A stretch of DNA of 39,975 nt from Ferroacidibacillus organovorans (GTDB lineage Bacteria; Bacillota; Bacilli; Alicyclobacillales; SLC66). The notes below the pieces were generated by a model. It did no database searches, was not told where the DNA came from, and saw only the letters and a list, made by a program, of their open reading frames with translations. Position numbers and translations under genes: made by a program. Numbering within the stretch: the stretch's first letter is position 1; every line of letters begins with the position of its first letter. Shown one piece after another: positions 7,910 to 25,504 of this stretch. The stretch is taken from assembly GCF_001642725.1 (NCBI RefSeq), contig NZ_LSUQ01000006.1:62001-101975 (forward strand). The letters run 5' to 3'.

Positions 7910-7948
7910 AAAAAAGGTTCGCAGGCGATTGCTCTGCGAACCTTTTTT
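7910..7948. terminator. Bidirectional intrinsic terminator between MFS gene and gerD
   Basis: AAAAAAGGTTCGCAG / CTGCGAACCTTTTTT inverted repeat between convergent genes. Confidence 0.9.
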
Positions 7949-8817
7949 CAAGAAGAGGAGCCCTCACTGCCACTTCCCTCTTTTTCTCCGCTAGAGGAGT
8001 CGCTCTGCTTATCTTTCTGAGTATCTTCTTGATCGCTCTTTCCTTTTTCCCCTTTCTCCCCTTTTTCAGACGCTCCCGGTTTTTCGGTTTTCCCCATTTT
8101 CTCTTTATCGCCACCGCCCGCCTGCTTTACTGCCTCTTTCATACTATCCTGAAAGAGCAGTCGAAACGTGGGCAGTTGCAGCGCCTCTGTCATAATCATC
8201 ATGATCTCTTTTCGGTATTCAGGGCTCTTCAAAAGATCAAACTGCATTTTCTGATACTCAGGCGACTTCATGAGAGCGAGCAGATCCTTTTGATACGTAG
8301 GATCGGTCATCAATTGTTTTTGCACGTTCGTCAATTGTTCCTTAGAGGCATTGACGACGGCGGCGGCGAATTGCGGGTCTTTCATTTGCTCGGTCAGCAG
8401 GCTTTTGTTTTTGCCTTGTTGCAACGTTTTTTCCACAGCCGTACTGATATCTGCCTGCGTAACCACTGACAGTCGTTTAAACTCAGGACTTGTCATCGTA
8501 TCGCGAAGTGTCGCCATTCCTTCTTTGCTGTGGAGGATATCCAGCACCATCGCTTTTAGGTCTGGATACGCCGTACCTCCGCTGCTCGCTTGACCTGATT
8601 TACCCGCTGCGCCTTGTGTCCCGCCTTGACCCGTCGCTTGTCCGTCCTGCCCTTGCGGTGAGGAAGAACCACTCTGCGGTGCAGAAGAGCCGCTCTGCGG
8701 TGAAGCGTTAGACACTTCTGCGGAAGTTGAGCCTCCTAGCCCGCAGCCTGCGAGCGTCGCAGTCAATCCCAGGCCGAGCAGCCAGACGTGGGCTGCGTGC
8801 GTTGCTGATTTCATCAC
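7948..8817 (-). CDS. gerD: Spore germination lipoprotein GerD
   Basis: Lipobox LAGC, YPDLKAMVLDILHSKEG, repeated DP/SP helical motifs (LMTDPTYQK, LMKSPEYQK); position near mrp and pdaB. Confidence 0.85.
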   Translation of the reverse strand: MMKSATHAAHVWLLGLGLTATLAGCGLGGSTSAEVSNASPQSGSSAPQSGSSSPQGQDGQATGQGGTQGAAGKSGQASSGGTAYPDLKAMVLDILHSKEGMATLRDTMTSPEFKRLSVVTQADISTAVEKTLQQGKNKSLLTEQMKDPQFAAAVVNASKEQLTNVQKQLMTDPTYQKDLLALMKSPEYQKMQFDLLKSPEYRKEIMMIMTEALQLPTFRLLFQDSMKEAVKQAGGGDKEKMGKTEKPGASEKGEKGEKGKSDQEDTQKDKQSDSSSGEKEGSGSEGSSS

Positions 8818-18195: not shown

Positions 18196-18308
18196 AGAAT
18201 CAGAAGCGCTTGATGCGCTTCTCGCGCGAACGGAATAAAAGAGGGTGACGGAACCCTTGTTTGTCATTTCCAAAAACGCGCTTGAGCCGCGTGGGGAGGT
18301 TTCTTTCA

Positions 18309-20138
18309 ATGTGTGGAATTGTTGGCTATGTTGGACGTCGGCAAGCGCAGGATGTCCTGTTGTCGGGACTTGAAAAGCTGGAGTATCGTGGGTATGACTC
18401 AGCGGGCGTGGCGATTTTTGAAGATGGCGAGGTGCGCGTGGAAAAGTCGGTGGGCCGACTCGCGGTGCTCGGTGACGCGCTTATTGCACACCCTGTACGT
18501 GGAAATCAGGGGATCGGTCACACGCGATGGGCGACGCACGGGCGCCCCTCGAACGAGAATGCGCATCCGCACGCGGATTGCTCGCGCGCGTTTGTCGTTG
18601 TGCACAATGGAATCATTGAAAACTATCAGTCGCTGCGCGAGCAGTTGATGGAGAGCGGGCATTCATTCGCCTCAGAAACGGACACCGAGATTGTGGCGCA
18701 TCTCCTGGAAGAAGCGTGGACGGGCGATCTCTTTTCGACCGTGCTCGCGGTGCTTCCAAACTTGCGCGGTGCGTACGCGCTTGCGATCATGGCGAAGGAT
18801 GAACCAGGGAAGTTAATCGCGGTGCGCAAACAGTCGCCATTGGTCATCGGTCTTGGCGACGGGGAGCAATTCTTGGCGTCGGATATCCCTGCGCTCCTTG
18901 AATATACGCGGGACGTGTACATCCTCGAAGACGGGGAGCTTGCCGTTTTAGAGGCGGATCGCGTAGCCTGTTACGATCTCGCGGGGAATCCGGTTGGCAA
19001 AGAGATCTTCAACGTGACCTGGGATGCGGTTGCCGCCGAAAAGGGCGGCTATGAGCATTTCATGCTCAAGGAGATTCACGAGCAGCCAAAAGCGGTGCGT
19101 GACACGCTCAGCGGGCGGATCGCGGAAGATGGCTCGGCAGTGACGCTTGGCGAGCTTGACTTAAGCGAAGAAGTCGTTCAATCGATTGATCGCATCCACA
19201 TTGTCGCGTGCGGCACGTCGTACCACGCGGGACTTGTCGGCAAAGTTGCGATTGAAACGCTCGCGCGCATTCCTGTGGACGTTGAAATTGCGTCAGAATA
19301 TCGCTATCGCAACCCGATTGTAACGGATCGCACGTTGATTCTGGTCATCTCGCAGTCCGGGGAGACGGCCGATACGCTGGCTGCGCTTCGCAATGCGAAG
19401 ATGGCCGGCAATCGCGTCATGGCGATCACAAACGTGGTCGGCAGTTCAGCGGCGCGGGAGGCAGATCACGTTCTCGTCACGTGGGCTGGGCCTGAGATTT
19501 CCGTCGCTTCGACAAAGGCGTACACGACCCAGTTGATCGCTCTCTACCTGTTTGCGACGTATCTCGGGCAGATCAAGGGAACGCTCGCCTCTGATGAGCG
19601 TGCAAAACTATTGAACGCCCTGCTGGATCTGCCATTGAAGATTGACGAAGTCTTGAAAACGGCGCCGGCGATCGAGACGATTGCGCGCGATTTCTCTTCG
19701 TGGGATGACGCGTTTTTCCTCGGGCGGGGGCTCGATTTTGCAGTCGCCCTCGAAGGCGCGCTCAAGTATAAGGAGATTTCGTATATCCACGCGGAGGCGT
19801 ATCCGGCGGGCGAGTTGAAACACGGCACGCTGGCGCTGATTACGGAGGACGTCCCGGTCATAGCACTCGTGACGCAGGATGAACTCTACGAGAAAACGGT
19901 CAGCAACATTAAGGAAGTGAAGGCGCGCGACGCGCACGTTCTTGCGCTCGCCTGGGTGGGGGACGAAGAGATTGGCAAGAGTGTGGATCGCGTCCTCTAT
20001 GTGCCGCGCACGCTGCCCTTTTTGGCGCCTGTGCTTCTGGTTGCGCCGCTTCAACTGCTGGCGTATTACGCGTCAGTTGCGCGTGGGAATGACGTCGACA
20101 AACCAAGAAATTTGGCCAAGAGCGTCACGGTGGAATAA
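18309..20138 (+). CDS. glmS: Glutamine-fructose-6-phosphate transaminase (isomerizing)
   Basis: Starts MCGIVG (ATG 18309, SD GGAGG); LEYRGYDSAG, GHTRWATHG, SQSGET; ends DKPRNLAKSVTVE. Confidence 0.99.
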   Translation: MCGIVGYVGRRQAQDVLLSGLEKLEYRGYDSAGVAIFEDGEVRVEKSVGRLAVLGDALIAHPVRGNQGIGHTRWATHGRPSNENAHPHADCSRAFVVVHNGIIENYQSLREQLMESGHSFASETDTEIVAHLLEEAWTGDLFSTVLAVLPNLRGAYALAIMAKDEPGKLIAVRKQSPLVIGLGDGEQFLASDIPALLEYTRDVYILEDGELAVLEADRVACYDLAGNPVGKEIFNVTWDAVAAEKGGYEHFMLKEIHEQPKAVRDTLSGRIAEDGSAVTLGELDLSEEVVQSIDRIHIVACGTSYHAGLVGKVAIETLARIPVDVEIASEYRYRNPIVTDRTLILVISQSGETADTLAALRNAKMAGNRVMAITNVVGSSAAREADHVLVTWAGPEISVASTKAYTTQLIALYLFATYLGQIKGTLASDERAKLLNALLDLPLKIDEVLKTAPAIETIARDFSSWDDAFFLGRGLDFAVALEGALKYKEISYIHAEAYPAGELKHGTLALITEDVPVIALVTQDELYEKTVSNIKEVKARDAHVLALAWVGDEEIGKSVDRVLYVPRTLPFLAPVLLVAPLQLLAYYASVARGNDVDKPRNLAKSVTVE

Positions 20139-20139
20139 T

Positions 20140-20194
20140 AAAAAGGCAAGCAGAGAGCGGCTGTTGTAGGTTGTTCTCTGCTTGTCCCGTCTTT
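20140..20194. terminator. Long hairpin terminator after glmS
   Basis: GGCAAGCAGAGAGCGGC (20145-20161) pairs with GTTGTTCTCTGCTTGTC (20170-20186) using G-U pairs. Confidence 0.7.
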
Positions 20195-20282
20195 GGGATC
20201 ACCTATCGATAAAATGATCTTTACCATCGTGGCAATCTCCATAACTGGACAACGAAATTGCGAGTGAGGAACGAGTACATCG

Positions 20283-21092
20283 ATGAACCAGTCAATCGTT
20301 GCGGGAAACCAAGGTAAACGCTATGTAACGAAAGTTCCAGAAATCACGTTCTATTTCTGGATTGTGAAACTCCTGACAACTGCCATGGGCGAGTCAACGT
20401 CTGACTATCTCGTCTACCACATCAATCCTTATGTTGCGGTCATCCTTGGTTTCATCGGCTTTGTGGTTGCACTCATTTTACAGTTTGCGGTGCGCCAATA
20501 TATAGCGTGGATCTACTGGCTTCTGGTCGTCATGGTTGCGATTTTCGGCACTATGGTTGCCGATGTCACGCATATTGTTCTCGGGGTACCGTATTACGCC
20601 TCAACCATCGCTTTTGCCATCCTACTGACCGTGGTGTTTATGACCTGGTATAAGGTAGAGGGCACGTTATCCATCCACAGCATCCATACCCGCCGACGCG
20701 AGCTATTTTACTGGTCGGCCGTGTTGGCTACGTTTGCCATGGGGACGGCATCAGGGGATATGACAGCAACGACCTTTCGTTTAAGGTACTTGGCTTCAGG
20801 TGTTTTATTTATCGTTTTATTTGCACTTCCTGGACTCGGCTACGCATGGCTTCGTCTTCATCCTATCTTTGCGTTCTGGTTTGCATACGTAATGACCAGG
20901 CCGCTTGGGGCATCCATTGCAGATTGGCTTGGAAAGCCAAAAAGCATCACGGGATTAGGTTATGGGGATGGCATTGTTGCGGCAGTATTGACAGTACTCA
21001 TAGTTATTTTTGTAGGGTATTTGACGGTGAGCAAAAGGGATGTTCAACGGCAATTATCGAGAAGTAGGGAGAGTCAGTTCGGACAGGTGTAG
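20283..21092 (+). CDS. COG4705/DUF347-type membrane protein
   Basis: KVPEITFYFWIVKLLTTAMGESTSD, TLSIHSIHTRRRELFYW, FWFAYVMTRPLGASIAD. Confidence 0.85.
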   Translation: MNQSIVAGNQGKRYVTKVPEITFYFWIVKLLTTAMGESTSDYLVYHINPYVAVILGFIGFVVALILQFAVRQYIAWIYWLLVVMVAIFGTMVADVTHIVLGVPYYASTIAFAILLTVVFMTWYKVEGTLSIHSIHTRRRELFYWSAVLATFAMGTASGDMTATTFRLRYLASGVLFIVLFALPGLGYAWLRLHPIFAFWFAYVMTRPLGASIADWLGKPKSITGLGYGDGIVAAVLTVLIVIFVGYLTVSKRDVQRQLSRSRESQFGQV

Positions 21093-21138
21093 GTCAGATT
21101 TGGGTGAAGTGGAGGATTGGAGAAAATGTCTTTTTTTC

Positions 21139-21197
21139 TTGTCGATCGTTAAAAAATGTCGTATTATTACGTTTTACGTAGTAAGTTGAACGTAATA
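21139..21197 (+). promoter_or_regulatory. Sigma-A promoter with PadR-type operator palindromes
   Basis: TTGTCG (21139-21144), 17 bp, TATTAT (21162-21167); TACGT-TTT-ACGTA (21168-21180); TATTACGTT (21165-21173) / AACGTAATA (21189-21197). Confidence 0.65.
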
Positions 21198-21214
21198 CTG
21201 ATGGGGGTAGTGCA

Positions 21215-21535
21215 ATGAGACAGAATGATTTAGGGCGATTCTCGGATGCGTCGTTTCTTATTCTTTCAAGTTTGGCGACCGGTCCAAAACACGGTTATGC
21301 CATGATGGAGGACATTCGTGCATTTAGTGGCACGCAATTGGAACCAGGAACACTTTACGGTGCGATCACACGCTTAGAAAAACAGGGTTGGATCGAAGCA
21401 TTGCCTTCTGAGGAAAGAAGGCGACCATACCGTATGACTGACGAGGGTGTGATGGCGCTTCGCAAGCAGGTTGCAACATTAGAACAAGTCGCTTTCGTGG
21501 GGAAGAACCGGTTGGCCATGATGGGGGGGAATTAA
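21215..21535 (+). CDS. PadR-family transcriptional regulator (short subfamily)
   Basis: ILSSL..GPKHGY, PGTLYGAITRLEKQGWI, RRRPYRMTDEG. Confidence 0.93.
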   Translation: MRQNDLGRFSDASFLILSSLATGPKHGYAMMEDIRAFSGTQLEPGTLYGAITRLEKQGWIEALPSEERRRPYRMTDEGVMALRKQVATLEQVAFVGKNRLAMMGGN

Positions 21536-21963
21536 ATGCGCTTTTTGCTAAAACTCTATCCTCAAGCGTGGCGAGAGCGATATGAAGAAGAAATGTTGGC
21601 AGTACTGATGGAGCACAAAATCACTCCTGCAACGGTTGTGGATCTCTTGATTGGCGCATTCGATGCCCATTTAAACGATAACGGTTTTGCGAAAGGAGCG
21701 AGATTTATGCGCAACCAACTTCGTTCTGGATTGGTTATGACATTCTGTGCGTTCATGGTCTTTGGGGTGGGTTGGGGGGCATTGCAAAGAATCACCGATC
21801 CATTGCCTCTGTTTCAAGCTGTAAATAAGCTATATCCTGAGCTAGGTATTTTACACGATACTGTATTTATTGTTGGTTGTTTTGCGTTTTTAGCTTTCTT
21901 GATCAGCGGACTTCCGATTTTCTTCATTTCTATCAAGCGAGCTTTTGAGAACAAACTATCTTC

Positions 21964-22027
21964 GCAAAAAGCCGATCTATTCCAGCAAAATAAGTTCTAC
22001 TCTGAGTAAAATAAGTTGGTTCCTACA
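21964..22027 (+). repeat. Three contiguous TnsB-like binding sites, 21-bp period
   Basis: GCAAAAAGCCGATCTATTCCA (21964), GCAAAATAAGTTCTACTCTGA (21985), GTAAAATAAGTTGGTTCCTACA (22006). Confidence 0.72.
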
Positions 22028-22028
22028 G

Positions 22029-22075
22029 CACGGGTGGATTCGGGTCAAAAGCCTGAATTAGCCCGTGTTTTTGTG
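22029..22075 (+). terminator. Intrinsic terminator inside the mini-element
   Basis: CACGGGTGGATTCGGGT-CAAAA-GCCTGAATTAGCCCGTG long stem with G-U pairs, followed by TTTTTGTGT. Confidence 0.75.
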
Positions 22076-22246
22076 TTGCAGGGACGAGGCGTTTTGGGAC
22101 AAGGGTAAGGCAAAAACCGAAGGAAATAAGACGCGAAAAAGCCCGATATATCAAGGATTCATGAACCATGCCCGATCAAAAATGAGAAAAAATACATGAC
22201 CAAATCTGCTCTCCCTACGCCCTTCAAGCCGCTCTTGCCCTGTTCT

Positions 22247-22452
22247 TCCACGGAAGCACTTCATTTTACGCAAAATCGATGAATCTGGAAAAATTACGGA
22301 GAAAAATGGGTGGGGAAAGGCGTGATCTACGGAAGAAATTCATTCGACGGTAGAAATTGGGTGAGAGTGAGAAAAGGGCGGGAAAAGCCTTGTGGGGCGT
22401 GGGATTTGGCGGGGTGGAGGCGGGAAGGGTGTAGGGACGAATTTGATTTGAC
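22247..22452 (-). repeat. Three spaced TnsB-like binding sites
   Basis: Minus strand: GTCAAATCAAATTCGTCCCTACA (22452-22430), GTCGAATGAATTTCTTCCGTAGA (22348-22326), GTAAAATGAAGTGCTTCCGTGGA (22269-22247). Confidence 0.78.
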
Positions 22453-23036
22453 GCTCACACAAACAAAAAAATGTATTGATTTTGTTTTGGGTTGCATTGT
22501 CCTGTTTGTTGTTATTTATATTTGAAACCGCTATTCTGGCGAACTGGAACCACATCTCATTCGTCAAGCATCACTTTTATGCATTTTTTCTGAGTTACCT
22601 TGGAGTGGTTGTGATTGAACTCGTCACAGGGGCGGTCTCCGTCTCTTTGACACTTGCGAGAACGGAATATCAATTAAGGGAACTGAGGTTCATGCTCATT
22701 CCTGAAATCATCCTTTGGTTGAGCATGGTGATATCCGTTATTTGTTCAATCGTGCTCATCAGCTTTATTGCTGTTTTCGCGCCACAACTGTTCAACACGC
22801 AGGATGTGGGTAGTCCCATGTTCATCACAGGTCTTATCGGTATGGCGATCGGAACACTCTTTGCTTCGATGGGACTGAAACGCGGAAGGATCATTCGTAT
22901 CAATTGAGAGCAAGGTTTGTTTTTATGTAAATGATAGAGTTAGAGTAGCTATGGGTGGAAGAGGTTGTCCTTGAATCGTATGGATGAATGGGATAACATT
23001 CCATGGAGGGCACATTGATTTACAAATGAAAGGATA

Positions 23037-23414
23037 ATGAAAATGTTACGCGTGAGTTTTGTCAGTATTCCTATATCGGATCAGGATCGCTCTTTAAAAT
23101 TCTACACCGAAAAACTGGGCTTTGACGTTGTGACAGACCAACCGTTTGGCAATGGAACGCGGTGGATTCAGCTTCGACCACCGGGAGCACAGACCGATGT
23201 GGTATTGTTCACACCTCCCGGTCAGGAAGAGCGAATCGGCGGTTTCCAAAGCATGGCATTCACGTGCGAAGATGTCGTGGGGACTTGTAGGATGCTGAAA
23301 GAACGCGGTGTGGAATTTGTGAAGGATGCGGAGCGTGCCAATTGGGGAGGCATGGAGGCTATCTTTAAAGACCCTGATGGGAACACGTTTGTTCTGGCAA
23401 ATCCGAATGAATAG
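23037..23414 (+). CDS. VOC/glyoxalase-family protein
   Basis: SIPISDQDRSLKFYTEKLGF...FKDPDGN. Confidence 0.93.
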   Translation: MKMLRVSFVSIPISDQDRSLKFYTEKLGFDVVTDQPFGNGTRWIQLRPPGAQTDVVLFTPPGQEERIGGFQSMAFTCEDVVGTCRMLKERGVEFVKDAERANWGGMEAIFKDPDGNTFVLANPNE

Positions 23415-23432
23415 AGGCAGGGGTGGGCACCT

Positions 23433-23909
23433 GTGGATGGCTGGGGAGAAGAAAGCACTGTATGGGATTTAAATGAAAAACAGATCATCGTTCTTTACCA
23501 TCAATTGTTGGCTGCATGGAACCACAAAAACGCTCGCGACATGGCCGATCTGTTCGCCGAAGATGGTGAACAGATCGGCTTCGACGGAAGTCTAGCGATT
23601 GGGCAAGCGGAGATCTATTCGCATGTAGCGCCGATCTTCGAACATCACGAGACAGCCCGATTTGTGAGTAAAGTCAAACGCATCCGCTTTCTGTCGACAG
23701 ACATCGCGATCCTTCGGGCTATTGCAGGGATGGTTTCGCCAGGGCAGTCAGACATTAACCCCCAGGTCAATACGCTGCACACATTGGTTGCGGTGCGGAT
23801 GGAAGATACGTGGCGAATCGCACTGTTTCAGAACACACCTGCACAGTTTCACGGTAGAACCGAGTTGGTTGATCAAATGACTGCTGAGTTACGAACGCTG
23901 CTCTCGTGA
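23433..23909 (+). CDS. SnoaL/NTF2-like protein (SgcJ/EcaC family)
   Basis: AWN...ADLFAEDG..IGFDGS...WRIALFQNTPAQFHGR; exact start uncertain. Confidence 0.85.
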   Translation: MDGWGEESTVWDLNEKQIIVLYHQLLAAWNHKNARDMADLFAEDGEQIGFDGSLAIGQAEIYSHVAPIFEHHETARFVSKVKRIRFLSTDIAILRAIAGMVSPGQSDINPQVNTLHTLVAVRMEDTWRIALFQNTPAQFHGRTELVDQMTAELRTLLS

Positions 23910-24003
23910 ACGCGTTTTTTAGATTCTATCGAGTAGACCCCCATGGCGCGAGCGCACCAGTTTGTTCGATGCGATCTTTGAATTATAAAAGAGCATTACT
24001 GGC

Positions 24004-24017
24004 TGTGAGCGGTGACA
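24004..24017 (+). promoter_or_regulatory. Possible CcpA cre site
   Basis: TGTGAGCGGTGACA matches TGWNANCGNTNWCA; about 25 bp upstream of the next -35. Confidence 0.35.
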
Positions 24018-24041
24018 ATGTAACGCGATATCACAACGTGC

Positions 24042-24070
24042 TTGCGAAAACTAATTTGATTAGTTATATT
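24042..24070 (+). promoter_or_regulatory. Sigma-A promoter with TetR-type operator in the spacer
   Basis: TTGCGA (24042-24047), 17 bp, TATATT (24065-24070); palindrome AACTAAT-TTG-ATTAGTT (24049-24065). Confidence 0.7.
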
Positions 24071-24113
24071 ATAAACGCGATTATCCAAATGTCTATTTAA
24101 GTTATCGAGAGGA

Positions 24114-24818
24114 ATGAACATGATGCGCATCATTCACGATGAATTCTTATATCAACTTACGTTTCTTCCAAAAATATTTCCGGTGAATTGTTATTTTGTG
24201 AGGGAGGATGATGGATTAACGTTACTTGATACTGCACTGCCTTATAGTGCAGAGGGCATTGTCACTGCAGCGAAAACGCTAAATATCCCCATCGTAAGAA
24301 TCGTTCTTACGCATGCCCACGGTGATCATATCGGAGCGCTTGACACGTTGAAAAAGGAATTGCCGAATGCATCCGTCTCGATCTCGTGTCGAGACGCACG
24401 CCTGTTGAGAGGTGATCGGACGCTTGATGCAGATGAACCCAATTCGCCAATTCGAGGGGGACTGCCTAAACCGAACACCATTCAAACGACCCCAGACCAT
24501 TTGCTAAAGGATGGGGATCGCATCGGTTCATTGCTTGCCATTTCGACACCTGGCCACACACCGGGTTCGATGTCATTCATCGATACCCGCAACCAATCTC
24601 TCATTGCAGGGGATGCATTTCAGACGAGGGGTGGATTTGCAGTGGCAGGACAATTCAGGCCATTGTTTCCTTTCCCGGCGATGGCAACGTGGAACAAGGA
24701 GGCAGCCATGCACAGCGCTCGTAGAATTCGCGAATTTCGTCCTACACTGCTGGCTGTTGGACACGGGGTAATGGTAAAAAACCCGATAGAATTCATGGAT
24801 CGAGCGATCGAACGCTAG
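24114..24818 (+). CDS. MBL-fold metallo-hydrolase (YobT-like)
   Basis: LTHAHGDHIG, TPGHTPG, AGDA, VGHG. Confidence 0.92.
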   Translation: MNMMRIIHDEFLYQLTFLPKIFPVNCYFVREDDGLTLLDTALPYSAEGIVTAAKTLNIPIVRIVLTHAHGDHIGALDTLKKELPNASVSISCRDARLLRGDRTLDADEPNSPIRGGLPKPNTIQTTPDHLLKDGDRIGSLLAISTPGHTPGSMSFIDTRNQSLIAGDAFQTRGGFAVAGQFRPLFPFPAMATWNKEAAMHSARRIREFRPTLLAVGHGVMVKNPIEFMDRAIER

Positions 24819-24832
24819 GAGAGTGAGGATCA

Positions 24833-25405
24833 TTGGCGCAGGGAGTAAGTGTAAATTTGCAGACCATTTTACAGGCTGCGACAGAGATTGTCGATTCACA
24901 AGGGCTTAAATCCCTCAGTCTCACCTCGGTTGCTCACATGCTCAGTATTCGTCCTCCTTCCTTATACAATCATATCCATGGCCTGTCCGGGCTGCGAACA
25001 GAGATTGCTATCCATGGATGCGATCTCCTGAACTCTGTGATCATGCGGGCGGCGCTTGGAAAATCCGGAGATCGTGCCGTGTACGCCATGGCGGAAGCCT
25101 TTTTAAACTTTGCCCGGATTCATCCAGGATTATATGATGCGGTCCAGGAGATTCATGAATATCAAGATCCGAGGTTGCAGCAAGCTGCAGAGAGGATCGT
25201 TGATACGGTCGTTCAGGTGATGAGGCACTACGGACTTGACGAAGAGAACTCCATTCACACTGTACGTGGTTTTCGTAGTTTGGTGCACGGGTTTGCCTCG
25301 CTGGAGCGTAGTGGGGGATTCAGAATGCCCGTTGATGTGGATCACAGTTTCCGTTTTCTTTTAGACGCATTTTTGACTGGACTTCATGCCATATACAGCG
25401 TTTGA
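24833..25405 (+). CDS. TetR-family regulator (YobS-like)
   Basis: HTH IRPPSLYNH; C-terminal HPGLY...VHGFASLE. Confidence 0.9.
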   Translation: MAQGVSVNLQTILQAATEIVDSQGLKSLSLTSVAHMLSIRPPSLYNHIHGLSGLRTEIAIHGCDLLNSVIMRAALGKSGDRAVYAMAEAFLNFARIHPGLYDAVQEIHEYQDPRLQQAAERIVDTVVQVMRHYGLDEENSIHTVRGFRSLVHGFASLERSGGFRMPVDVDHSFRFLLDAFLTGLHAIYSV

Positions 25406-25435
25406 CAAATGGATAGGGAGCCTTTTACATACTGT

Positions 25436-25480
25436 AAAATACACATGGACGACCGCTGCTTCTATCGCCATGTGTATTTT
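25436..25480. terminator. Bidirectional terminator between convergent genes
   Basis: 13-bp perfect inverted repeat AAAATACACATGG / CCATGTGTATTTT. Confidence 0.75.
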
Positions 25481-25504
25481 CAGATTGCGTAAATATAGAA
25501 AGAA

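Follow-up and report, generated by a model that had tools for sequence, protein, structure and literature searches.

A 503-bp gene-less element with Tn7-like ends interrupts a membrane-protein gene of Ferroacidibacillus organovorans

The PadR-linked membrane-protein gene of Ferroacidibacillus organovorans is split by a short segment without genes, which raises the question of what this segment is and how it came to lie there. We analysed a stretch of 39,975 nucleotides (contig NZ_LSUQ01000006.1, positions 62,001 to 101,975; referred to as the window), in which the segment occupies 503 bp at positions 21957-22459 and is bordered on both sides by CAAAC. The original prediction had read it as a non-autonomous element of the Tn7 family that consists only of two transposon ends. 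This reading gained support from homologous Alicyclobacillus copies of about 500 bp, all of which have 5-bp duplications of their own. Very probably, the element is non-autonomous and MITE-like and derives from a Tn7-like transposon that targets glmS and is in circulation among Alicyclobacillus-type Bacillota. The coordinates of all features are collected in the table.

Table. Features of the element and its surroundings (positions in the window)
Feature	Position	Strand	Basis or remark
glmS	18261-20138	+	SIS and GATase domains
PadR regulator gene	21215-21535		Upstream neighbour of the split gene
5' part of interrupted membrane-protein gene	21536-21956	+	Downstream of the PadR regulator gene
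Left target-site duplication CAAAC	21952-21956		Read directly; removal of the element and one copy restores the gene
Left (glmS-facing) terminus TATCTTC, 7 nt, without the usual TGT	21957-21963	+	Sequence, cross-copy site table
Left array, three abutting putative transposase sites, period 21 nt	21964-22027	+	L1 21964-84, L2 21985-22005, L3 22006-27
Hairpin of 19 pairs, then a T-run, read inward from the left end	22027-22073	+	Resembles an intrinsic terminator
Non-coding middle segment	22074-22246		Partly conserved, notably ~22130-22215
Right-end site s3, innermost, 23 nt	22247-22269	-	56-nt gap to s2 in 3/3 full copies
Right-end site s2, 23 nt	22326-22348	-	81-82-nt gap to s1 in 3/3 full copies
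Right-end terminal site s1, 23 nt	22430-22452	-	
Right terminus TGTGAGC read inward (GCTCACA on the + strand)	22453-22459	-	
Right target-site duplication CAAAC	22460-22464		Read directly
3' part of interrupted membrane-protein gene	22460-22907	+	

The interrupted gene encodes a membrane protein of the 287-aa class. In its present state, the 5' open reading frame enters the element and meets an in-frame stop at 22007-22009. We aligned the N-terminal (21536-21955) and C-terminal (22467-22907) pieces with 12 full-length homologs, taken from 29 homology matches. All 12 intact homologs were matched end to end without any indel, and the single alignment column between the two pieces is the codon that straddles the duplication. 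Removal of the element therefore restores a reading frame, as had been predicted, and the insertion inactivates the PadR-linked gene. The predicted 5-bp direct repeat was read directly from the sequence. Taken from the window alone, it leaves a 1-nt ambiguity, because it reads as 6 bp (ACAAAC) if the last A of the element is counted. Its length was set at 5 bp by the A. mengziensis copy described below, which is free of this ambiguity. Among the findings that would have spoken against the original prediction were a gene that does not read through the junction and ends that map to another family; neither was made.

The two ends of the element are organised differently. Both arrays begin 7 nt from their terminus, but the left sites are 21/22 bp long and contiguous, whereas the right sites measure 23 bp, are spaced and lie in inverted orientation. 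We saw the predicted pattern of three contiguous left and three spaced right sites at a 7-bp offset again, and found it conserved across copies: the asymmetric arrangement of ~22-bp sites, abutting on the left and spaced on the right, keeps its spacing in all three full copies. Of the left sites, L3 matches the terminal right-end site most closely in inverted orientation. L1 is weak in the window, yet well formed at the same position in other copies. Tandem Repeats Finder independently reported a 21-nt period at 21976-22017, a repeat search paired 21984-96 with 22005-17, and the left-array end is 91-93% identical between full copies. For the right-end site pattern we obtained three matches against a shuffle mean of 0.28, a circular comparison since these very sites had served to define the pattern. 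By their arrangement, the repeats at both ends would represent TnsB binding sites.

As predicted, the element is gene-less: no open reading frame of at least 50 aa lies wholly within its 503 bp, and indels between copies break any reading frame in it. The hairpin next to the left array folds with -29.3 kcal/mol (z -4.2), and none of 200 shuffled sequences folded as well. It is present in five of five copies. Since none of its 19 pairs shows a compensatory change, this is conservation without covariation. A simple terminator scan did not list the hairpin at 22027-22073, which from its shape may nevertheless terminate transcription. The middle segment is 76-89% identical between full copies in a mosaic pattern, with the window copy nearest to that of Alicyclobacillus sp. 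ALC3 (88.8%). An Rfam scan of 21500-23000 at E values up to 1 returned no family match inside the element. A sub-threshold match to CrcZ (E 0.42), at chance level, lies in the right flank and touches only the last base of the element. As this was all that Rfam gave, we dropped a structured-RNA or intron reading.

We scanned species-representative genomes for relatives with one exact 22/23-nt pattern and one genome per species, a design by which copies and parents are easily missed. The scan yielded four loci, all in Alicyclobacillus. The three full copies, in the window, in A. mengziensis and in Alicyclobacillus sp. ALC3, measure 503, 503 and 501 bp, are 82-84% identical, and show an identical site order with right-end gaps of 56 and 81-82 nt. 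They occupy three different sites with the duplications CAAAC (window), CCTAT (A. mengziensis) and CTAGC (ALC3). The further copies with different 5-bp duplications that the original prediction had proposed to look for are thus present in A. mengziensis and ALC3. In ALC3 there are two identical copies, and the CTAGC duplication is split across the pair. By the exact-match pattern, we counted one copy in the 40-kb window, two in ALC3, one plus a relic in A. mengziensis, and one relic in A. tolerans. A right end for the A. mengziensis relic was considered near L001 2870 and rejected by eye, since a site at the expected offset and a matching duplication are both missing there. Motif searches of the 40-kb window for further copies or relic ends returned only the element's own sites and chance-level matches; in one such search, 67 of 100 shuffles equalled or exceeded the number of matches. 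Distant-mode blastn gave no match, either for the window element against plasmids or for the ALC3 copy against phages.

These copies bear on how the element arose. Precise restoration of the gene, together with length, site order and site spacing conserved in two other species, excludes a chance origin. Because the same deletion could not have arisen three times, the short form itself must have transposed, and we regard it as mobile on the strength of this comparison. Between the window and ALC3, the element is 84% identical but glmS only 68.8% at the nucleotide level, which fits horizontal spread rather than vertical relics.

Termini of the type TGT/ACA are near-universal, but the left terminus of the window copy begins with TAT. 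The right-end TGT is present in three of three full copies (TGTGACC in A. mengziensis, TGTAGTC in ALC3), and the left terminus reads TGTGTTC in the ALC3 copy and TGTGGCG in the A. tolerans relic. However, the full copy of A. mengziensis, with its intact CCTAT duplication, carries exactly the TATCTTC of the window. The left terminus of the A. mengziensis relic starts with AAT and shares bases 2-7 with TATCTTC. A mutation of TGT/ACA has been used experimentally to immobilise mini-Tn6022, according to the parts of PMC11014353 that we consulted. The original prediction had left both options open for TAT, a family variant or an immobilising mutation. The former stood and the latter did not: a second, independent insertion with the identical terminus, and a relic with the same bases 2-7, support TAT as a variant inherited within a lineage and not a private immobilising mutation.

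Placement relative to glmS also links the family to Tn7. The A. mengziensis copy starts 23 nt past the glmS stop, its duplication is centred 21 nt past the stop, and its contiguous-site end points toward glmS. Directly behind it lies the relic, which was 25 nt from glmS before the later insertion and likewise turns its contiguous end toward the gene. This placement and orientation are the signature of Tn7/TnsD. In the window, by contrast, the 3' end of glmS and the ~25 nt past its stop, the equivalent of attTn7, are unoccupied and contain a hairpin but no element end; this att region matches that of A. mengziensis at 48 of 80 positions. Instead of occupying the att site, the window copy lies 1819 bp beyond the glmS stop, and its flanks match the glmS 3' att region at only 16 of 80 positions. 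The statement that the flanks do not resemble the glmS 3' TnsD site thus holds. Unrelated pairs of insertion-site flanks gave 12-27 of 80; the ALC3 flanks included 4 nt of the element in this comparison, with the result unchanged. Reading of the DNA directly behind the window glmS, and of the distal margin of the low-GC stretch, showed no relic ends. Downstream distances from glmS are 23, 879 and 1819 bp for the full copies, which all turn the same end toward the gene.

We did not find an autonomous element with the same ends in the four scan loci, the window, plasmids or phages. No cas or tns genes were detected among 40 large window ORFs scanned for domains, and there is no CRISPR-like array in the window, where Tandem Repeats Finder gave just two short 21-nt repeats. 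Nothing in the window points to RNA-guided (CAST) targeting. Behind glmS, ALC3 carries a gene resembling tnsA (NCBIfam NF033179, E 3.5e-11, short of the curated cut-off) and another whose product is homologous to Tn6677 TnsB (E 2e-23). Judged by these homologies, the genus Alicyclobacillus does host Tn7-type machinery. The ALC3 mini-element sits inside tnsA of this other Tn7-type element, which we rejected as its parent because the glmS-side end bears no evident likeness, by eye, to the mini-element end. As the searches gave no autonomous element of this kind, we infer mobilisation in trans by an autonomous partner. Besides this negative result, the TAT in place of TGT, the position of the window copy away from the glmS site and the low copy number speak against the favoured reading.

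Could the element be something other than a mobile Tn7 derivative? The most serious competitor, although an unlikely one, is a miniature of another DDE family (Mu-like, Tn552, IS21 or the tnsA-less Tn5053/Tn402) rather than of a Tn7-type TnsABC+D transposon. A 5-bp duplication, TG…CA ends and asymmetric site arrays also occur in Mu and Tn5053, and no cognate transposase gene was found in the window or the scan loci. However, both A. mengziensis insertions share one orientation and a position 21-25 nt after the glmS stop, and to our knowledge insertion at a fixed distance and in one orientation behind glmS is known only for TnsD/TniQ-directed Tn7-like elements. The TGTG terminus with its 7-nt offset to the first site also parallels the 8-bp end of Tn7.

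Still less credit can be given to the idea that a full-length Tn7-like insertion lost its genes by internal deletion on the spot, so that the short form would never have transposed. Deletion and decay are frequent among Tn7-like elements, as far as the consulted parts of PMC11837452 go, and the window holds a single copy. Against this stand three copies of 501-503 bp with the same internal junction and spacing, which occupy unrelated sites in three species and have their own duplications. We give almost no weight to the notion that the segment is not a transposon at all, but an intron-like or regulatory RNA or a recombination scar with a chance short repeat. Its strong conserved hairpin and its position within a coding region, on the coding strand, would suit such an origin. 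But Rfam found no match within the element, the in-frame stop truncates the host ORF, and there are other copies in intergenic DNA behind glmS. Three different 5-bp duplications at three sites and inverted repeat arrays at both ends are likewise at odds with it.

As a mobile derivative of a Tn7-like transposon, the element would have kept the cis-acting parts only. The left 7-nt terminus with its three abutting 21/22-bp sites would be the equivalent of the Tn7 right end, and the 7-nt TGTG terminus with three spaced 23-bp sites that of the Tn7 left end; the terminator-like hairpin just inside the glmS-facing end would also have been retained. An autonomous relative could supply a TnsB-type transposase that binds the six sites and pairs the ends. 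The 3' ends would then be joined to the target at positions staggered by 5 bp, which would generate the CAAAC duplication. A TnsC/TnsD-type targeting module may direct family members to ~20 nt behind glmS, and the window copy may have reached its site via a second targeting route or an untargeted event.

Comparison with known systems, for which we relied on parts of the cited papers, shows likenesses and differences. Tn7 has an 8-bp end sequence and 22-bp sites that overlap in the right end and are spaced in the left (PMC9308760), and glmS-directed insertion is described for TnsD-encoding Tn7-like elements (PMC2918618). The element shares with Tn7 and its TnsD-encoding relatives the 5-bp duplication, a TGTG terminus and arrays of ~22-bp sites after 7-8 nt, as well as sites that abut or overlap on the side of glmS and are spaced on the opposite side (PMC9308760). 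As in Tn7, family members insert ~20 nt past the glmS stop in one orientation (PMC2918618). Unlike Tn7, the element lacks tnsABCDE or any other gene, is just 503 bp long, has three instead of four glmS-facing sites, and shows gaps of 56 and 81 nt versus 31 and 42 bp (PMC9308760). In addition, one of its lineages has a TAT terminus, and the window copy lies away from the att site. Partly degraded Tn7-like elements with intact ends have been suggested to be mobilisable by the proteins of another element (PMC11837452). The degraded cyanobacterial array-targeting elements described there keep tns remnants and tnsD, whereas ours consists of ends only and its short form is conserved across species (PMC11837452). 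Engineered mini-Tn7 vectors likewise contain only two cis-acting ends, placed around a marker, with the transposase (TnsABCD) encoded elsewhere (PMC2918618, PMC11014353), and can land behind glmS (PMC2918618). In contrast to these vectors, the element is natural and cargo-free, has diverged by 16-18% between species with its architecture kept, and carries a terminator-like hairpin.

Bacterial MITEs and Tn3-derived TIMEs are short, non-coding ends of a parent transposon that make target duplications and are mobilised in trans. The element resembles them in being short and non-coding and in having two transposon ends and target duplications. It differs in that its ends are asymmetric site arrays instead of simple terminal inverted repeats, in its low copy number by the exact-match count, and in that part of the family is site-specific for glmS.

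In the literature searched, of which we saw parts, we came across neither a natural miniature element that derives from Tn7 and lacks genes nor any account of Tn7-like elements in Alicyclobacillus. The supplement text of PMC8649781 and PMC10293859 contains no mention of Alicyclobacillus or of two accession roots. In ALC3, in the region from 1.989 to 2.067 Mb of NZ_CP066784, CTAGC flanks a whole unit of copy, ~73 kb and copy, inside a tnsA gene, and the two copies are directly repeated. A more far-reaching proposal, which we put forward as speculative, is that this is the first described natural gene-less 'mini-Tn7' family, in which a lineage with TAT/ATA termini transposes, two direct copies form a composite transposon in ALC3, and insertions are drawn to the few kb behind glmS off the exact att site.

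Interest in Tn7-like transposons stems from targeting that is tightly controlled and programmable, and all engineering with them relies on artificial mini-elements made of two ends. The natural mini-element family shows which minimal cis-acting unit is kept, namely arrays of three sites at each end, their fixed spacing and a terminator-like hairpin. With its TAT lineage, the family also provides a natural experiment on whether the TGT terminus is strictly required. It further indicates that Tn7-like elements have non-autonomous parasites, which are able to disrupt genes of the host and even the tnsA of a different Tn7-like element. What follows in practice for this genome is that a PadR-linked membrane-protein gene is inactivated.

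The window element is a real and precisely bounded insertion into a protein-coding gene. The open reading frame following the PadR regulator gene (21536-22009) and a second one at 22476-22907 represent the two halves of one membrane protein. When its first 140 aa were searched against longer proteins, 29 of 284 candidates matched; 26 of these matches are 283-295 aa long and cover 99-100% of the query, and they derive mostly from Alicyclobacillus species or metagenomes. We aligned 12 of the 29 homologs with both window pieces, which were entered as separate fragments. Relative to all 12 homologs, the N-terminal piece ends at column 140 and the C-terminal piece begins at column 142. The lone intervening column is the codon straddling the duplication, and none of the 12 shows a gap there. 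Therefore, the insertion consists of exactly 503 bp plus the 5-bp duplication, and the reading frame is restored by removal of the element without any indel, as originally predicted. This off-site insertion inactivates the membrane-protein gene.

The anticipated CAAAC repeat, termini, and three contiguous left and three spaced right sites were all recovered by inspection of the sequence, a repeat search, and Tandem Repeats Finder, the latter independently reporting the 21-nt period of the left-end sites. The best inverted match of the terminal right site in the repeat search was the innermost left site; on reading, the two differ by a 1-nt deletion. No ORF of at least 50 aa lies wholly within the 503 bp. 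From the window alone, the repeat could be 5 or 6 bp long, since an A precedes the left CAAAC and an A also ends the element, but its length is settled as 5 bp by the sequence of the A. mengziensis copy. The site plan of Tn7 (PMC9308760) is reproduced, with three sites at each end and larger gaps between them.

Positions of the element, its parts, and related copies
Feature	Location	Basis
Target-site duplication CAAAC	window 21952-56 and 22460-64	read from sequence
Left terminus TATCTTC, then abutting sites	window, starts 21964, 21985, 22006	
Right terminus TGTGAGC (read inward), then 23-nt repeats	window 22430-52, 22326-48, 22247-69	
glmS	window 18261-20138	Pfam
Full copy, 503 bp	A. mengziensis L001 1952-2454	blastn and alignment
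Two identical copies, 501 bp	Alicyclobacillus sp. ALC3, 1571-2071 of L002 and of L004	blastn and alignment
Left-end relic	A. mengziensis L001 2462 to ~2724	blastn and alignment
Left-end relic	A. tolerans L003 1881-2072	blastn and alignment

The stretch just inside the left sites (window 22027-22069) folds into a 19-pair stem-loop (-29.3 kcal/mol, z -4.2), and a T-run comes next. This hairpin was found in 5/5 copies examined and none of its 19 pairs shows a compensatory change, so that its support consists of energy and sequence conservation. Read inward from the glmS-facing end, the predicted structure looks like an intrinsic terminator, which would block transcription arriving from glmS or, at the window site, from the PadR operon. 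A simple terminator scan did not flag it. A sigma-70-like promoter match (9/12) is located inside the right end (22263-22291, minus strand) and directed toward the left end; with one match found versus 0.6 expected, it may be due to chance.

Species-representative genomes were scanned with one degenerate 22/23-nt pattern fitting the innermost left and terminal right sites of the window element. The scan identified four loci, all in Alicyclobacillus: one each in A. mengziensis and A. tolerans, and two in Alicyclobacillus sp. ALC3. Further copies with different 5-bp duplications, for which a search had been proposed, are thus found in this genus, with CCTAT in A. mengziensis and CTAGC in ALC3. 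The three full copies (window, A. mengziensis, ALC3) are about equidistant (82-84% identity), their left end being most conserved (91-93%) and their middle mosaic. All of them keep the same layout: each terminus is 7 nt long, the left end has three abutting sites, and the gaps between right-end sites measure 56 and 81-82 nt. The mosaic is seen at columns 128-200 of the alignment of element copies, A1 (window 22074-22130). The window and ALC3 have one version in common (88.8% over the middle); in A. mengziensis, the full copy carries another, which also occurs in the A. tolerans relic. Such a pattern points to recombination among variants of the element. For the window and ALC3, element identity exceeds the nucleotide identity of glmS (68.8%; GlmS protein 68%), indicating that the copies spread horizontally or recently and not by descent with the chromosome. 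In A. tolerans, an NmrA-like ORF (L003 1023-1925) abuts and, with its 3' end, overlaps the 192-bp relic, which lacks the remainder of the element.

The A. mengziensis copy occupies the Tn7-type landing position (att). In this genome (NZ_CP071182), the glmS stop codon is located at L001 1926-28 and the CCTAT duplication occupies 1947-51 and 2455-59. With its first base at 1952, the element begins 23 nt past the stop, and the duplication is centred 21 nt past it. The abutting-site end points toward glmS; the glmS-proximal end of Tn7 is its right end. It is directly followed by the left end of a copy inserted earlier, which lay 25 nt past the stop until the newer insertion. In this tandem (L001 1947-2724), the full 503-bp copy thus lies between glmS and the relic; target immunity was either not conferred by the relic or somehow overridden. 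In the window, the att position behind glmS is empty. Over the 80 nt preceding the insertion, 16/80 positions are identical to the window's own att region, which is within the range of unrelated pairs (12-27/80) and compares with 48/80 for two glmS regions (ALC3 flanks being taken 4 nt off), in agreement with the claim that the flanks do not resemble the glmS 3' site. The distance behind glmS could be measured for four insertions, namely the A. mengziensis relic and the three full copies; the values are 23, 25, 879, and 1819 bp, and in each case the same end faces the gene. For the A. tolerans relic alone, 2 kb of surrounding sequence contain no glmS. In these few cases, the arrangement may reflect regional targeting, local hopping, or survival of insertions in dispensable island DNA. 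For Tn6022, PMC11014353 describes internal or proximal insertions that overcome target immunity.

The three ~500-bp copies share their internal structure and occupy unrelated sites: in the window the membrane-protein gene, in A. mengziensis the att site of glmS, and in ALC3 the interior of a tnsA gene. The 5-bp duplication differs at each of them. A relic of in-situ deletion, i.e., an element shrunk in place, cannot explain the same short structure at three sites with different duplications and was therefore rejected. Judged from these junctions, the short form itself transposes. The left terminus TATCTTC, for which the original prediction had offered an immobilising mutation or a family variant, is identical in the A. 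mengziensis full copy, while the relic behind it has AATCTTC, ALC3 TGTGTTC, and A. tolerans TGTGGCG. Two independent insertions with intact duplications hence carry the same two differences from TGTG, so the TAT variant was already present in a transposing ancestor. This favors the family variant; given the A. mengziensis insertion, TAT is not an immobilising mutation confined to the window copy. According to a section of PMC11014353, changing TGT/ACA was used to immobilise a mini-Tn6022, and transposition of the TAT lineage is mildly surprising given this precedent.

Behind ALC3 glmS, we found a TnsA-like gene (Pfam PF08722, E 6e-5; NCBIfam NF033179, E 3.5e-11; both below cut-off) and a TnsB homolog (E 2e-23 to Tn6677 TnsB, 3.8e-8 to Tn7 TnsB). 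On the strength of these matches, Alicyclobacillus also hosts Tn7-type machinery. The tnsA/tnsB element begins 2 nt past the glmS stop and was itself struck by the mini-element, which sits in its tnsA. By eye, this tnsA/tnsB element has a different-looking end. This end begins with TGTGAAC (L002 2676-2950, minus strand), the TnsA-like gene following ~275 bp later; its duplication would overlap the glmS stop codon. An autonomous partner with the ends of the mini-element was not found in the window, the four loci, plasmids, or phages. The two identical ALC3 copies (NZ_CP066784) lie ~73 kb apart in direct orientation. CTAGC is present on their outer flanks (L004 1566-70 and L002 2072-76), whereas TAGAA and TACTA on the inner sides differ from each other, and the tnsA frame broken at L002 2072 resumes at L004 1569 for 50 codons. 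Judged from the 4-kb loci, the simplest interpretation is a composite transposon in which both copies and the 73 kb between them entered tnsA together, using one outer left end and one outer right end; alternatively, a circle may have integrated by recombination between copies.

The window comes from the chromosome of a spore-forming bacterium of the Bacillota, with rpoA, rplM-rpsI, gerD, spoIIM, cdaA-cdaR-glmM-glmS, and nadABC assigned by Pfam. No transposase, tns, or cas domains were detected by Pfam among the 40 large ORFs scanned. The G+C content is 53-57% across most of the window and 44-50% from ~20 to 25.5 kb; this low-G+C stretch (20139-25500) begins right after glmS. It contains genes for DUF347, PadR, the split membrane protein, glyoxalase, SnoaL, metallo-beta-lactamase-fold, and TetR proteins. 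Identity to ALC3 is higher for the DUF347 gene (75.8% nt, 81% aa) than for glmS (68.8% nt, 68% aa), suggesting that the glmS site harbors an island exchanged horizontally. Relic transposon ends were not found at the edges of this stretch. A 21-nt tandem repeat at 8654-8705 (2.5 copies, 83% matches), within a GerD-like ORF (7948-8817), is unrelated to the element.

A search of open-access full texts retrieved neither a natural gene-less Tn7-derived miniature element nor Tn7-like elements in Alicyclobacillus, and the supplement text of PMC8649781 and PMC10293859 contains no Alicyclobacillus entry. Provisionally, a natural gene-less mini-Tn7-type element has apparently not been described before. 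For partly degraded elements, possible mobilisation in trans is suggested in PMC11837452. The ~500-bp copies, their 5-bp duplications, and the insertion at the glmS site support the original non-autonomous Tn7-family reading, and the element is very probably a Tn7-like MITE. Its family is small, occurs in Alicyclobacillus-type bacteria, and makes use of the classic glmS site.
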